Positions 213 through 8,886 of a stretch of DNA of 64,000 nucleotides are shown one piece after another. This stretch comes from Escherichia phage vB_EcoM_G4498. The position numbers and the translations under genes are program-made. Below the pieces are notes generated by a model. It was not told the DNA's origin and ran no database searches. It worked only from the letters and a program-made list of their open reading frames with translations. Where the stretch lies: sequence record NC_054918.1; one strand, written 5' to 3'. The number at the start of each line of letters is the position of its first letter. The first letter of the stretch is position 1.

Positions 213-240
213 GTGTTTCCTTGTTTGTTTTGATAGAGTA

Positions 241-270
241 ATTATACCATATTAATACTTAAGCGTAAAC
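241..270 (-). promoter_or_regulatory. T4 early-type promoter (-35 GTTTAC, 18 nt spacer, -10 TATAAT)
   Basis: minus strand GTTTAC (265-270) and TATAAT (241-246), about 29 nt upstream of the ATG at 212. Confidence 0.55.
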
Positions 271-273
271 CGT

Positions 274-534
274 TTAAGCTTTACCGCCAGAAATAATTCC
301 GAAGTTGTTAAAATCATATCCAATATCGTCAACATCTACTTTAGGACTTGCTACAACATAAGCAATTTCACTACGTTTTGCACAGGTGTTGATTTCTTTA
401 CCATCGCCACCTAAGAAAGAATACCCATTACGTTTTAATGAGCCAAAGTCTTCCGCATCACCAATGAAAGCTTTAACTTTAAATTTAGAACCTTTGGCAT
501 CTGCTTCAACGATAAATTCTTGATACATTTTCAT
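274..534 (-). CDS. Internal protein-like (capsid-targeted) small protein, 86 aa
   Basis: ORF with ATG at 534; N-terminus MKMYQEFIVEA matches the CTS motif. Confidence 0.7.
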   Translation of the reverse strand: MKMYQEFIVEADAKGSKFKVKAFIGDAEDFGSLKRNGYSFLGGDGKEINTCAKRSEIAYVVASPKVDVDDIGYDFNNFGIISGGKA

Positions 535-672
535 TTTTCCTTAGTAAATTGATTTACCAAAGTATTTGTACCAAGTCGGACGTTGATCAATTTTTTCATC
601 TAAGCGTGCTTGATTTATCGCAATGGACGCTTCGGACGGGTCATAATTTCCTCCAAGTAGTTGATGAATGTA

Positions 673-701
673 TAGTATCAAAACCCTTGGAGGAAGTAAA
701 C
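673..701 (-). promoter_or_regulatory. T4 early-type promoter (-35 GTTTAC, 17 nt spacer, -10 TACTAT)
   Basis: minus strand GTTTAC (696-701) and TACTAT (673-678). Confidence 0.45.
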
Positions 702-703
702 AA

Positions 704-985
704 CTATTTTTCTGAAGCGCCTGAAATATATTTTTCAAGACGTTGTTTCATCAGCGAGCCGTTCTTAGCGATTTCTTCCGGTTTATCGCACATACGCAAC
801 AAGGCTTCAAGCTTAACGATATCACTGGTGCGCTCAAATTTGCGAGTATCTATCTTACTAGCAAGTTCAGAAATACGTGCTAATAGACTTTCAGCTTCAA
901 CCAAAGCTGCACCTAGCTTAGTTGCAAATGTGTCAGTAGCTTCGTTAAGAATAGATTCTGATAAAAATTCACTATATGTTTTCAT
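704..985 (-). CDS. Internal protein-like (capsid-targeted) small protein, about 93 aa
   Basis: ORF track start at 1000 is TTG; in-frame ATG at 983-985 gives [10 protein letters not shown] and forms an ATGA overlap with the lysozyme stop. Confidence 0.65.
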
Positions 986-1470
986 ATATACGCTTTCCAA
1001 GTTCCTGTTTTAAATGTTGAGATTACGCGTTTCGCGCGATTAGGTGTCTGACGATACCATTTAGATTGGGCTAGATTTACTGCCGCTTCGTCCCAACGTT
1101 TCTGTTGAAGCATACGCAAAGAGTTAGTAAATCCTGCCACGCCAGTTTCTCCCATTTGGAAGACCATATTAATCAATGCACAGCGACGAACCGCATCAAG
1201 AGAATCATAAACCGGTTTTAATTTAGCATTTCTCAGAATTCCGCAAACAGCAGCATCAACATCCTGATTAAAGAGTTTTTCAGCCTCATCTTTTGTAATT
1301 ACACCATTGCAATTACGCCCAATAGCTTTGTCTAATTCAGATTTAGCAACATTAAGTGATGGACTTTTAGTAAGCAAATGACCGATGCCAATAGTGTAAT
1401 AGCCTTCTGTGTCTTTATAGATTTTAAGTCTAAGACCTTCATCTATACGTAACATTTCAAATATATTCAT
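982..1470 (-). CDS. e: Lysozyme (endolysin), T4 gene e family
   Basis: 162 aa beginning [35 protein letters not shown], near-identical to recalled T4 lysozyme; strong AGGAGG RBS. Confidence 0.97.
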
Positions 1471-1507
1471 AATACCTCCTAAGTATTTATAGAAGGTATT
1501 TATAAAA

Positions 1508-1948
1508 TTAAAAGAGGTTGTTCATTATTCGGTAAAGTGAAGGACCCATCACATATTGCCACTGAGTACGAGGAATAAGAGCAAAAGCGTCCATCTCTGG
1601 AATCATAACGCCATCTTTATTTTCAAAATAAGACTCGCAACGGCAATTTCTGAACATCTCATGCTCTACTGGAATCGTGTAATAAAATAACTGTAAGTCT
1701 TTATTACTAGAATATTTAAATACACCTAGGTCTTCTAGAAGGTCTGGATTATAATTGCTAAAACCGGTCTCTTCTAAGCATTCTCTTTTTGCAGCTTCCA
1801 GTGCATTCAAATCAGAACTTTCTACACGTCCCTTTGGAATATCCCAGCGATGTGCCATCATTCCAGGCTTACGAGAACCAGTAACCCGACCCATAAATAA
1901 ATCTTTATCTTCTGTCATGAAGATAATACCAGCTGATAATGTTTTCAT
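1508..1948 (-). CDS. nudE: Nudix hydrolase (NudE-like)
   Basis: Nudix box [24 protein letters not shown]; ATG at 1946-1948 with AGGAAA RBS and ATGA overlap with the upstream stop (track start at 1963 is TTG). Confidence 0.88.
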
Positions 1949-2307
1949 TTTAATTTCCTGCAATCACTCACAAACTCTTTCATTGATTCATTTTCAATAT
2001 AAGACATGTAGCTATTATATTCTTTTAATTGTATTTTGTAATATTTTTTTCTTTGCCAATTTATTTTAAAATTATCATAATGAAAATATAACATGGTACC
2101 AAAGAATGAAAATAATGAAATAATTTTAGTATAGTGAAGTTCACTCCAAACTTCTGTTATATTTACTGTGCCGTCGATGTTTAAAATAAGACAGTCAATT
2201 AACAATCCAAAAAGACTACCCGCAAGAGCTGCAGCCAACGCCACAGCAAAAATTAAAAATGACTCAGGAAGCGAATATTTGACTTTATTTAGTTTTGGCT
2301 TTTGCAT
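1945..2307 (-). CDS. Small membrane protein (hypothetical)
   Basis: 120 aa ORF with ATG and AAGGAA RBS; hydrophobic segment LIFAVALAAALAGSLFGLLI. Confidence 0.55.
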   Translation of the reverse strand: MQKPKLNKVKYSLPESFLIFAVALAAALAGSLFGLLIDCLILNIDGTVNITEVWSELHYTKIISLFSFFGTMLYFHYDNFKINWQRKKYYKIQLKEYNSYMSYIENESMKEFVSDCRKLK

Positions 2308-2681
2308 CGTGATTCCTTAACAAATTTCATAATTTCATTAAATTCATACTCAGCAAGTTTAATCTGGTGTTCCTTTTTAATCTTTTTACACTGTGCTTTC
2401 CAATCACGTACGCGTTTACGATAATGCCTTCCTTGATACCAGTATCCTACCCAATTTATAGGTACTAATAAAAATGGAACTATTAATGGAAGAATTAGCA
2501 TTAACACAAGTATTTCGCCAGAATCAATATCAGTCATAACATCTAAAACACCTCCAATAATCAATAGAATTACAAATGATATAAGTATAACAGGACCTAT
2601 TAATACATCAGTAGAAATTATCTGACGCTTTAATTCATACTTCAACGGTTTACTTGGAAGGTATAGTGATGGTTTTGACAT
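2289..2681 (-). CDS. Small membrane protein (hypothetical), about 130 aa
   Basis: track start at 2702 is TTG; first ATG at 2679-2681; two hydrophobic helices; overlaps neighbours. Confidence 0.5.
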   Translation of the reverse strand: MSKPSLYLPSKPLKYELKRQIISTDVLIGPVILISFVILLIIGGVLDVMTDIDSGEILVLMLILPLIVPFLLVPINWVGYWYQGRHYRKRVRDWKAQCKKIKKEHQIKLAEYEFNEIMKFVKESRCKSQN

Positions 2682-7814: not shown

Positions 7815-7842
7815 TTTATTCTCCTCAGTAGTTGATAGGGTA

Positions 7843-7872
7843 ATAGTATCACAACTAAAACCACATGTAAAC
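7843..7872 (-). promoter_or_regulatory. T4 early-type promoter (GTTTAC, 18 nt spacer, TACTAT) with conserved leader
   Basis: minus strand GTTTAC (7867-7872) and TACTAT (7843-7848). Confidence 0.55.
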
Positions 7873-7875
7873 AAT

Positions 7876-8100
7876 TTATTCAACACCAGCGGCTTTCAAA
7901 AGTTTCTTAAGATTGGCAACACCTTGAGCAGAAAATGTGACCTTTCCACCTTTTTCACTGATAGAACCAACCAATTTAGCAAGTTTATCATTAGGAATTT
8001 TTTTAAAATCAGCCAATGTCCCATCAAAGGTTTTTGAAACAAAAGGCAGTTCATCTTCATGTCTTTTAGCTTCTACAATAAATTTTTGATATGTTTCCAT
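7876..8100 (-). CDS. Internal protein-like (capsid-targeted), about 74 aa
   Basis: N-terminus METYQKFIVEA from ATG 8098-8100; alternative ATG at 8112 adds METK. Confidence 0.6.
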   Translation of the reverse strand: METYQKFIVEAKRHEDELPFVSKTFDGTLADFKKIPNDKLAKLVGSISEKGGKVTFSAQGVANLKKLLKAAGVE

Positions 8101-8137
8101 TTTAGTTTCCATTTAGATGTTTTGTTTTGATAGGGTA

Positions 8138-8167
8138 ATAATATCACTACCCCATCTAAAAGTAAAC
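8138..8167 (-). promoter_or_regulatory. T4 early-type promoter (GTTTAC, 18 nt spacer, TATTAT) with conserved leader
   Basis: minus strand GTTTAC (8162-8167) and TATTAT (8138-8143). Confidence 0.55.
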
Positions 8168-8177
8168 GGTTTATAAA

Positions 8178-8486
8178 CTATTTTATTCCGCGTGATGCAA
8201 TTGTGTTCTGCCGTTTAACGCCAGTTTGTTTAAAGTCATGATTGTCGATTTGATCGGTACGAGCAACTCCGAATGATGATTTGATTTTAGCCTTAGATCC
8301 TTTAGTTATAGAAATAAACATCTCGGAAGCCCCTTTCTTAAAGTCCGAGGCGATTACTTCAACGCCGTTCTTAGCAAGTGACTTCAGAATTGCCTCTGCA
8401 TACTCATCGTCAAGACTCGTCTGAGTATTAATAACGAATGTCTTTGGCGCAGCCGCTTCATTGATAAATTCTTTAAATGTTTTCAT
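8178..8486 (-). CDS. Internal protein-like (capsid-targeted), 102 aa
   Basis: ATG start; N-terminus MKTFKEFINEA. Confidence 0.7.
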   Translation of the reverse strand: MKTFKEFINEAAAPKTFVINTQTSLDDEYAEAILKSLAKNGVEVIASDFKKGASEMFISITKGSKAKIKSSFGVARTDQIDNHDFKQTGVKRQNTIASRGIK

Positions 8487-8517
8487 TTTTATTTTCCTAA
8501 TTAATTTTGATGAGATA

Positions 8518-8547
8518 ATAGTACCACAACCCTATTTAAAAGTAAAC
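8518..8547 (-). promoter_or_regulatory. T4 early-type promoter (GTTTAC, 18 nt spacer, TACTAT)
   Basis: minus strand GTTTAC (8542-8547) and TACTAT (8518-8523). Confidence 0.5.
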
Positions 8548-8820
8548 TCATTTTAAATAAATTGCGTATTTTTTATAACCCGCTGACTCATGACGAAGAC
8601 CATTATCATTAGCAAAACGCTCAATGTTGTTAATTTGATTCTGGTCAAGTTCAGAGATGTCAAACACGAAAAAGTTACGTTTGTTACCAACTGTTACATA
8701 GTCAGTTAAATCAATATCATATAGGTAATTGATGTCAGCAATCAAAGTCTTGACAGCTTTGCTAATTTTTACTTTTTCGTTAAAAGCAGCTTCAGCAATA
8801 AATTCTTGATACGTTTTCAT
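8548..8820 (-). CDS. Internal protein-like (capsid-targeted), about 90 aa
   Basis: track start at 8838 is GTG; ATG at 8818-8820 gives MKTYQEFIAEA. Confidence 0.7.
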   Translation of the reverse strand: MKTYQEFIAEAAFNEKVKISKAVKTLIADINYLYDIDLTDYVTVGNKRNFFVFDISELDQNQINNIERFANDNGLRHESAGYKKYAIYLK

Positions 8821-8856
8821 TTTATTCTCCAATTTCACATTTGTTTTGATAGGGTA

Positions 8857-8886
8857 ATAGTATCACTACTAAAACCCCGTGTAAAC
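8857..8886 (-). promoter_or_regulatory. T4 early-type promoter (GTTTAC, 18 nt spacer, TACTAT) with conserved leader
   Basis: minus strand GTTTAC (8881-8886) and TACTAT (8857-8862), 37 nt upstream of the ATG at 8820. Confidence 0.55.

Follow-up and report, generated by a model that had tools for sequence, protein, structure and literature searches.

Why does one short promoter-like element stand before so many small genes in a single region of a T4-type phage genome, and what does it do there? The question is raised by the region between genes 57B and ipIII of Escherichia phage vB_EcoM_G4498, which lies in a 64,000-nt stretch of sequence record NC_054918.1 (the whole stretch is referred to below as the window) and carries eight such elements, here called cassettes A to H. 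The first-pass annotation described them as copies of a mobile early-promoter/leader repeat of roughly 60 bp, flanking cargo genes that resemble those for internal head proteins (IPs). Our analysis makes it very probable that each of the eight is an ordinary early promoter of the T4 type together with its 5′ leader, and that these elements are also exchange points for small accessory genes, including those for IPs.

The eight cassettes and the T4 early promoter family

A scan for GTTTAC followed after 16–19 nt by TAnn[AT]T finds exactly eight well-formed sites in the window, all on the minus strand and all with an 18-nt gap (17 nt by the sigma-70 convention). The first G of the -35 element lies at 8886, 8547, 8167, 7872, 4506, 4167, 701 and 270. 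Seven of the eight sites have an exact GTTTAC, and the one at 4167, in cassette C, reads GTGTAC. These positions and hexamers bear out the eight minus-strand copies that had been listed, including the copy called degenerate. The composite motif GTTTAC-N18-TAnnAT-N6-ATCAA, with at most one mismatch, matches eight times in the window against 0.07 matches expected by chance, and none of 100 shuffled sequences contained more than one match. In every copy, TGn directly precedes the -10 element, with TG at -15/-14, and ATCAA occupies +1 to +5. The multiple alignment that had been proposed as a check gives the invariant columns GT.TAC, TG.TA..AT, ATCAA and ATG, with the start codon 22–37 nt downstream of +1. 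All eight sites are intergenic and lie within the variable 57B-to-ipIII region.

The relation of these sites to known promoters was addressed with a profile hidden Markov model (HMM) built from 27 T4 early promoters, with zero window sequence included, and searched against the 64 kb with nhmmer. The T4-only profile recovers exactly the eight sites (E = 3e-11 to 0.01; next best E = 0.15), which makes them members of the genome-wide T4 early promoter family and not a repeat peculiar to this region. This membership supports the early-promoter identity that had been proposed from the DNA letters. The cassettes and their parts are listed below, each with its predicted +1, the gene it would drive and its profile E value.

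8818..8886, minus strand: cassette H; GTTTAC at 8886-8881, TACTAT, predicted +1 at 8850, 30-nt leader ATCAAAACAAATGTGAAATTGGAGAATAAA, ATG at 8820; drives the ip9-like gene; E = 2e-9
8484..8547, minus strand: cassette G; GTTTAC, TACTAT, predicted +1 at 8511, 25-nt leader, ATG at 8486; drives the ip7-like gene; E = 4e-6
8098..8167, minus strand: cassette F; GTTTAC, TATTAT, predicted +1 at 8131, 31-nt leader, ATG at 8100; drives ip8; E = 4e-7
7812..7872, minus strand: cassette E; GTTTAC, TACTAT, predicted +1 at 7836, 22-nt leader ATCAACTACTGAGGAGAATAAA, ATG at 7814; drives trna.4; E = 1e-9
4431..4506, minus strand: cassette D; GTTTAC, TACTAT, predicted +1 at 4470, 37-nt leader ATCAACTACTGATACAG..TTGGAGAATAAA, ATG at 4433; drives e.8; E = 3e-11
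4099..4167, minus strand: cassette C; degenerate GTGTAC, TATTAT, predicted +1 at 4131, 30-nt leader, ATG at 4101; drives a 54-aa gene in the e.7 slot; E = 8e-4
641..701, minus strand: cassette B; GTTTAC, TACTAT, predicted +1 at 665, 22-nt leader, ATG at 643; denV promoter; E = 7e-8
210..270, minus strand: cassette A; GTTTAC, TATAAT, predicted +1 at 234, 22-nt leader, ATG at 212; drives the ipIII-like gene; E = 0.01

The whole T4 genome was also scanned, and promoters of the same build were listed for comparison. Several cassettes have positional orthologues among them, namely before ipI, trna.4, e.8 and denV. Cassette E corresponds to the T4 promoter at 73572 and cassette D to that at 70696; cassette D is in addition nearly identical to the T4 promoters at 27080, 55384, 163673 and 167086. 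The promoter named Pe133295 in the T4 record equals scan position 133331 minus 36, which places +1 at the seventh base after the -10 element; in each of the eight window copies, the A of ATCAA occupies this position. UP, -35, TGn and -10 elements are described as occurring together in T4 early promoters, along with ‘additional regions of consensus’ (Hinton 2010, PMC2988021), and their GTTTAC occupies -36 to -31 (PMC1524935). The cassettes share the -35 GTTTAC / TGn / -10 part of this architecture, with an A/T-rich, UP-like tract before some of them, and they have the strong profile match and the positional orthologues. They differ from the genome-wide T4 set in being more uniform, as all eight begin with ATCAA, compared with 10 of 27 T4 promoters (Fisher p = 0.003). 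The Pe class as such is reportedly treated by Wilkens and Ruger in 1994 and by Miller and colleagues in 2003.

Beyond the fixed positions, the copies are much less alike. Pairwise identity from -36 to +14 ranges from 42 to 78%, and the spacers are near random for most pairs (mean 32%), with the exceptions of H/E and G/F, which reach 79%. Exact common tracts measure 12–21 nt, the longest runs of 20–21 nt being found between specific pairs. The 26-mer quoted as the conserved leader (coding-strand sequence GTGATACTATTACCCTATCAAAACAA) covers TGn, the -10 element and only 11 transcribed nucleotides; it occurs with at most three mismatches in two copies only (none in H, one in F), the others differing at 5–12 of 26 positions. 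A single 60-bp repeat family is ruled out by this range of identity together with the restriction of the 26-mer to two copies. The copies are accurately described as eight promoters of a single family, in which two leader subtypes occur, and not as eight copies of a 60-bp repeat.

The idea of a conserved leader holds for ATCAA, which all copies share, and fails beyond it, where two types appear. Type one, ATCAAAAC, is found in cassettes A, C, F and H, with the variant ATCAAAAT in G, and type two, ATCAACTACT, in B, D and E. The same leaders are present at distant T4 promoters (27080, 53943, 55384, 146143, 163673, 166807 and 167086, near ndd, motA, frd, nrdC and imm). The leader is thus a genome-wide trait of a T4 early promoter subfamily, and a leader specific to this region was rejected on the same grounds.

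Several further scans delimit the set. A generic sigma-70 scan had no discriminating power (42 sites against 36 expected); only those of its sites that bear TGn coincided with the cassettes. Neither the motif scan nor the T4 profile HMM found an element of the cassette kind in the rest of the window, which holds late structural genes, and an Rfam search over positions 1-9700 matched only tRNAs, with no RNA family over the leaders. The A+T content from -60 to -37 varies between 58 and 92% (window mean 64%) and exceeds the mean in five copies, not in A, B and E. A ninth copy is recognizable as a dead remnant.

3925..3948, minus strand: dead e.6 promoter remnant, with GTTTAC, a 6-nt spacer instead of 18 nt, and TACTCT

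Compared with SF4, SF7 and ECO07P2, the remnant has lost 12 nt of its spacer by deletion. The promoter at this place in T4, P922, phage 132 and CT01 is well formed.

A cassette accordingly reads, from 5′ to 3′, as an often A/T-rich upstream tract, the -35 GTTTAC, an 18-nt spacer ending in TGn, the -10 TAyTAT, a predicted start at the A of ATCAA, a 22–37-nt leader of one of the two types, a Shine-Dalgarno sequence and the ATG. Family membership suggests that host sigma-70 RNA polymerase would fire the cassettes immediately after infection. With such firing at every cassette, each small gene behind one would form its own transcription unit.

The Shine-Dalgarno region itself comes in two forms. 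It reads GGAG in cassettes B, C, D, E and H (5′ untranslated regions 643-665, 4101-4131, 4433-4470, 7814-7836 and 8820-8850) and GGAAA in the IP cassettes A, F and G (212-234, 8100-8131 and 8486-8511). The T4 endoribonuclease RegB has GGAG as its cleavage motif, and GGAAA may let the IP messages of A, F and G escape the inactivation of early mRNA.

An alternative account of the likeness is that contact with RNA polymerase constrains the same positions in every copy, with neither common descent nor any role in gene shuffling. The near-random sequence of most pairs outside the -35, TGn, -10 and ATCAA positions agrees with this account, as does the recurrence of the same fixed positions in promoters all round the T4 genome. 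Contact does not explain the non-contact positions held in common by the H/E and G/F spacers or the exact runs of 20–21 nt. The comparison with relatives described below contradicts it at three further points, and we consider constraint alone improbable.

Exchange at the cassettes among relatives

Positions 1-9600 of the window carry minus-strand genes and are 94–96% identical, in 6–8 collinear pieces, to many Tequatrovirus genomes. The region corresponds to 57A, the ipI locus, the tRNA cluster, e and the ipII/III locus of a Tequatrovirus. Breakpoints were compared between the window and seven relatives (T4, SF4, SF7, P922, phage 132, ECO07P2 and CT01). Gene content, whose comparison the first-pass annotation had proposed as a check, differs among relatives in the 57B-to-ipIII region. 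Of 28 clusters of breakpoints, nine are located in cassette intervals, which cover 9% of the region (binomial p = 6e-4).

More telling than this count are the cases resolved at sequence level, one of which concerns ip8. This gene is missing in SF4, P922, phage 132, ECO07P2 and SF7, whose single trna.4 promoter is a hybrid that matches cassette F on the upstream side of a shared core and cassette E on the downstream side. The F/E crossover interval of ECO07P2 is a shared 14-nt tract, TATTACCCTATCAA. The hybrid promoter of the relatives without ip8 means that the window differs from them by exactly one unit of 295 bp, comprising one gene and one cassette. A hybrid junction inside the shared core, found in five relatives, is not what contact constraint alone would leave behind.

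Cassette parts have been exchanged as well. The ip9 and trna.4 leaders are reciprocally swapped between RB15 and the window, and RB15 possesses an extra ip5 module, after which come a duplicated 57B 3′ end and a second cassette. Across ten phages, three spacers and two types of leader accompany ip9, and five spacers accompany trna.4. Cassette G is itself a chimera, its leader being identical to the T4 ipI leader and its spacer different. Both the reciprocal swap and such chimeric combinations of spacer, leader and cargo contradict contact constraint. Moreover, the cargo of one cassette type is e.7 in T4, and P922, phage 132 and CT01 have an unrelated gene behind it. Cassette C together with the 54-aa gene is also present in SF4, SF7 and ECO07P2, whereas the e.7 slot of T4, P922, phage 132 and CT01 has a different cassette with one of two other cargo genes. 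The ipIII genes of T4 and the window stand behind different cassettes, with the break at the Shine-Dalgarno/ATG region.

Recombinational gain and loss of genes at these elements, as had been proposed, is supported by the F/E hybrid promoters, the leader swap relative to RB15 and the chimeric combinations of parts. The outcome is visible in the compared genomes, and the following mechanism would account for it. Homology for a crossover would be offered by 12–21 nt around the -10 element and +1, by the Shine-Dalgarno-to-ATG region and, for IP genes, by the roughly 30 nt that encode the capsid-targeting signal. The general recombination of the phage would occasionally cross over in these cores, so that a gene with one cassette is inserted, deleted or replaced, or cassette parts are swapped.

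Several points limit this picture or weigh against it. Promoter activity in vB_EcoM_G4498 is a prediction from homology to T4. The other 19 of the 28 breakpoint clusters lie outside cassettes, among them an e.2 indel between 30-nt repeats, a precise trna.3 deletion, segB/HNH homing-endonuclease insertions among the tRNAs, and the slot of a 187-aa gene. In an informal tally, breakpoint density in cassettes, at about 1.0 per 100 nt, is not clearly higher than the density of about 0.6 per 100 nt in other intergenic sequence, and the enrichment at cassettes may therefore partly reflect selection against breaks in genes. In addition, the identical tracts are shorter than the roughly 50 bp quoted for efficient homologous recombination in T4 (PMC2839356), and most cassette pairs have the near-random spacers noted above. 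Finally, folding of cassettes A, C, D, E and G is not better than that of shuffled controls (z = +1.9 in G), leaving five of the eight copies without a significant hairpin. The case of e.2, which is not in the window, illustrates the other kind of event: at 1945-1974 a 30-nt junction stretch aligns to both sides of a segment of about 456 bp of T4, SF4, P922, phage 132 and CT01, a pattern that indicates deletion between short direct repeats and not at a promoter cassette. The cassettes are thus one route of plasticity in this region, and others exist too.

Hairpins over the promoter spacer

The remaining three cassettes do fold better than shuffled controls. In their stems, the promoter spacer is base-paired with the sequence that directly follows the -10 element or, in cassette B, with the Shine-Dalgarno region. 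Cassette F has a strong hairpin straddling the -10 element (GATGGGGTA / TACCCTATC; -19 kcal/mol, z = -4.0; spacer-to-downstream duplex p = 0.003). In cassette B the spacer TTCCTCCAAG is complementary to the Shine-Dalgarno region CTTGGAGGAA (-20.7 kcal/mol, z = -3.4; duplex p = 0.003), and cassette H has a moderate hairpin (-16.2 kcal/mol, z = -1.95). When the promoters of T4 and the window are taken together, 15 of 43 exhibit spacer-to-downstream pairing at p <= 0.05 (binomial p = 1e-9). In several T4-type promoters a TTCCTC spacer is placed opposite a GGAG(G) ribosome site.

The denV promoter contains a compensatory change, with CTCCTGT/ACAGGAG in T4 and TTCCTCCAAG/CTTGGAGGAA in the window. 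Since the pairing is kept through different sequences, it points to selection on the structure. Chimeric cassettes with broken pairing (G in the window; that of ip9 in 310Ecol104PP) indicate on the other hand that the hairpin is not essential.

In cassettes B, F and H the hairpin, which corresponds to the stem-loop of the promoter-early stem-loop (PeSL) elements discussed below, may attenuate read-through transcripts or silence them translationally. A more specific and tentative idea, which we consider rather doubtful, is that the inverted repeat of many T4-type early promoters, in which the spacer pairs with the first transcribed bases or the Shine-Dalgarno sequence, is a selected ‘insulator’: read-through RNA would hold both arms, fold, and either hide its ribosome site or be attenuated. 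RNA starting at the cassette's own +1 would lack the 5′ arm and be translatable. Each unit of cassette and gene would then be autonomous in expression wherever it is placed, which would explain free shuffling. The 15 paired promoters and the compensatory change at denV speak for the idea. To our knowledge, published work treats the stem-loops as terminators and not as transcript-specific translational switches at early promoters. The hairpin as a transcript-specific insulator is the one loose end here that has some novelty.

The hairpins bear also on the possibility that a dedicated recombination system, integron-like and working through mini-circles, recognizes the promoter hairpin by structure or sequence and acts independently of general homologous recombination. 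For homologous recombination the common tracts are short, T4 early promoters contain hairpins more often than expected, and PeSL mini-circles were detected in RB49/phi1 by Arbiol 2010, who raised this possibility (PMC2839356). Set against these points, the genes of the region include zero recombinase candidates, and five of the eight cassettes lack the hairpin, including E, a partner in the ip8 junction. The junctions are located in whichever tract is identical, be it the promoter core, the Shine-Dalgarno-to-ATG region or the targeting-signal coding sequence, which fits homology-guided exchange. We regard a dedicated system as extremely improbable.

Cargo genes and comparison with known elements

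In the direction of transcription, the region reads 57A, 57B, three IP genes, trna.4, trna.3, trna.2 and ten tRNAs, followed by an open reading frame (ORF), the rnaD/rnaC region, a 187-aa gene with an IP-type N-terminus, e.8 and the 54-aa gene of the e.7 slot, and then by e.6, e.5, e.4, e.3, nudE, e (lysozyme), a 93-aa IP gene, the denV remnant, an 86-aa IP gene and the ipIII-like gene. The IP assignments rest on the RB15 record Z35082, deposited with the 1994 study of Repoila et al. mentioned below, and on PHROG matches. In the list below, a slash marks the prohead-protease site at which the capsid-targeting N-terminus ends.

8548..8820, minus strand: ip9-like internal head protein, 90 aa; N-terminus MKTYQEFIAE/A; PHROG 7673, E = 3e-54; collinear with RB15 ip9
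8178..8486, minus strand: ip7-like internal head protein, 102 aa; N-terminus MKTFKEFINE/A; PHROG 2667, E = 5e-41; collinear with RB15 ip7
7876..8100, minus strand: ip8 internal protein, 74 aa; N-terminus METYQKFIVE/A; PHROG 8765; 99.1% identical to RB15 ip8 (Z35082)
7629..7814, minus strand: trna.4 orthologue, a 61-aa membrane protein and not an IP; cargo of cassette E
4170..4433, minus strand: e.8 orthologue, 87 aa; cargo of cassette D
3937..4101, minus strand: 54-aa gene in the variable e.7 slot; cargo of cassette C
541..643, minus strand: denV (endonuclease V) remnant or pseudogene, downstream of cassette B
274..534, minus strand: 86-aa IP-like gene; N-terminus MKMYQEFIVE/A; PHROG 2667; without a promoter of its own
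3..212, minus strand: ipIII-like internal virion protein; the window start truncates the gene, leaving the N-terminal 70 aa; PHROG 5341, E = 1e-42; 97.7% identical to T4 ipIII

Capsid-targeting N-termini of the MKTYQEFIAE/A type are encoded by seven genes in positions 1-9600, and the internal head or virion protein families matched are PHROGs 5341, 2667, 3499, 8765 and 7673 (E = 1e-19 to 1e-54). Only ip9, ip7, ip8 and the ipIII-like gene stand directly behind a cassette; the other three genes of this type are without one. The cargo of the remaining four cassettes is trna.4, e.8, the e.7-slot gene and the denV remnant. The statement that the cassettes flank IP-like cargo is consequently only half true, holding for four of the eight cassettes and not for the four before non-IP genes or the three IP-type genes without a cassette. 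The cargo is patchy compared with the flanking gene, as collected phage records number 1025 for 57B, 153 for ip9, 151 for ip7 and 106 for ip8. The ip9-ip7-ip8 run already exists in RB15 and 310Ecol104PP, with ip9 and ip7 99.6–100% identical and ip8 99.1%.

This distribution of cargo bears on whether tandem duplication of an ancestral IP gene and its promoter left the repeats behind, which would then be paralogous gene copies and not portable cassettes. The four closest copies (E to H) do stand in tandem at the ipI locus, the IP genes have the leader and the targeting-signal coding sequence in common, and ip7 and the 86-aa IP match the same PHROG 2667 (repeat families D2-D7). Duplication does not account for the four cassettes before unrelated non-IP genes, for the three targeting-signal genes that lack a cassette, or for the same cassette types with unrelated cargo at far T4 loci. 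Particularly, the incongruence of cassette and cargo, with one cassette type before e.7 in T4 and before different cargo in P922, phage 132 and CT01, refutes duplication as a complete explanation; we judge it very improbable.

The denV remnant has lost about 313 nt internally, between the near-identical 9-mers ATGACCCGT at its start and ATGTCCCGT near its 3′ end. The resulting frameshift yields MTRPKRPLR* and leaves the C-terminal coding sequence out of frame. denV is intact in SF4, P922, phage 132 and T4, and ECO07P2 has a different truncation. The first gene left intact downstream of cassette B is the 86-aa IP-like gene.

The ATG of the 93-aa IP gene shares bases with the lysozyme stop codon (ATGA, 982-986, minus strand). 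Two exact late-promoter boxes, TATAAATA, stand in front of the lysozyme gene, with their first letters at 1504 and 1491 (1484-1504, minus strand), and this arrangement suggests that the 93-aa IP is probably expressed late, coupled to e, rather than from an early cassette. Late promoters before the IP genes themselves were discarded as a candidate, as exact TATAAATA on the minus strand occurs only upstream of e (1504 and 1491) and inside trna.2 (7178).

The 187-aa gene (4662-5225, minus strand) has the N-terminus MKTYAEFLTE/AAK, is situated between rnaC and e.8, and is without its own early promoter. Its only match is to a PHROG of unknown function. T4 and phage 132 lack the gene, and CT01 and ECO07P2 have variant alleles of it. 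Its position is outside the two classical IP loci, beyond which IP genes were stated to be absent (Arbiol 2010, PMC2839356). The tRNA cluster (5636-6833, minus strand) comprises ten tRNAs (Arg, Asn, Tyr, Met, Thr, Ser, Pro, Gly, Leu and Gln) compared with eight in T4, and lacks the homing endonuclease segB. The tRNA-Arg gene and the rnaD/rnaC region are separated by an unrelated ORF of 116 aa (5636-5985).

Elements of this kind are already known. T-even IP-locus elements are reportedly the subject of a 1994 paper by Repoila, Tetart, Bouet and Krisch (EMBO J 13:4181). PeSL-like early-promoter/stem-loop elements at the two hypervariable T-even IP loci, proposed to confine IP shuffling there, are attributed to Repoila et al. 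1994 by two later papers (PMC2839356, PMC4122927), and the name PeSL comes from Arbiol 2010 and Comeau 2014. The suggested match of the window elements to mobile promoter-early cassettes fits both of these reports (PMC2839356, PMC4122927). The T-even elements share with the cassettes the phage group, the loci (57B-to-trna.4 and downstream of e), the gene set, the promoter type and the proposed role in IP shuffling. The ip9-ip7-ip8 run is collinear with RB15 Z35082 at 95%, ip8 being 99% identical. Nothing essential sets the window apart; its own combination consists of ip9-ip7-ip8 with ip5 missing, a leader swap relative to RB15, and a denV that has undergone a deletion.

Arbiol 2010 regards the T-even IP elements as analogues, not homologues, of the RB49 PeSLs, a PeSL being a promoter plus a stem-loop (PMC2839356). 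Comeau 2014 extends the name to T4/PST with the consensus TTTACW-N17-TAYWAT (PMC4122927), which fits all window cassettes except C, whose -35 reads TGTACA. The PeSLs of RB49/phi1 (Arbiol 2010) and of PST/T4 and nt-1/KVP40 (Comeau 2014) resemble the cassettes in combining an early promoter with a Shine-Dalgarno sequence and an ATG; the A/T-rich tract and the overlapping or adjoining stem-loop of the PeSLs recur in some of the cassettes. Both are located in hyperplastic regions before small accessory genes, beside indels and replacements between close relatives. They differ in that a stem-loop exceeds shuffled controls in only three of eight window copies, and in that the stems are A/T-rich here and of the G(n)/C(n) type in RB49. 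Integron cassettes and the Botstein/Campbell ‘linker’ model offer a more distant parallel, in which single genes are bounded by short conserved sequences and intergenic exchange is safe, with expression ensured. Unlike integron cassettes, those of the window have no integrase or attC-type site, the conserved unit is the promoter itself, and exchange is apparently homology-guided.

The window is one more well-resolved example of this phenomenon, with a clean ip8 insertion/deletion junction and a leader swap. IPs are injected with the phage DNA, and each of those characterized so far (Ip1, Ip2 and Ip3) counters one variant of GmrSD, a type IV restriction enzyme (PMC12373910), so that the IP repertoire of a T-even phage helps to set its host range. 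The promoter cassettes are joints where this repertoire gets reassorted. For the annotation and engineering of therapeutic T4-like phages, they mark safe insertion points with expression already provided.

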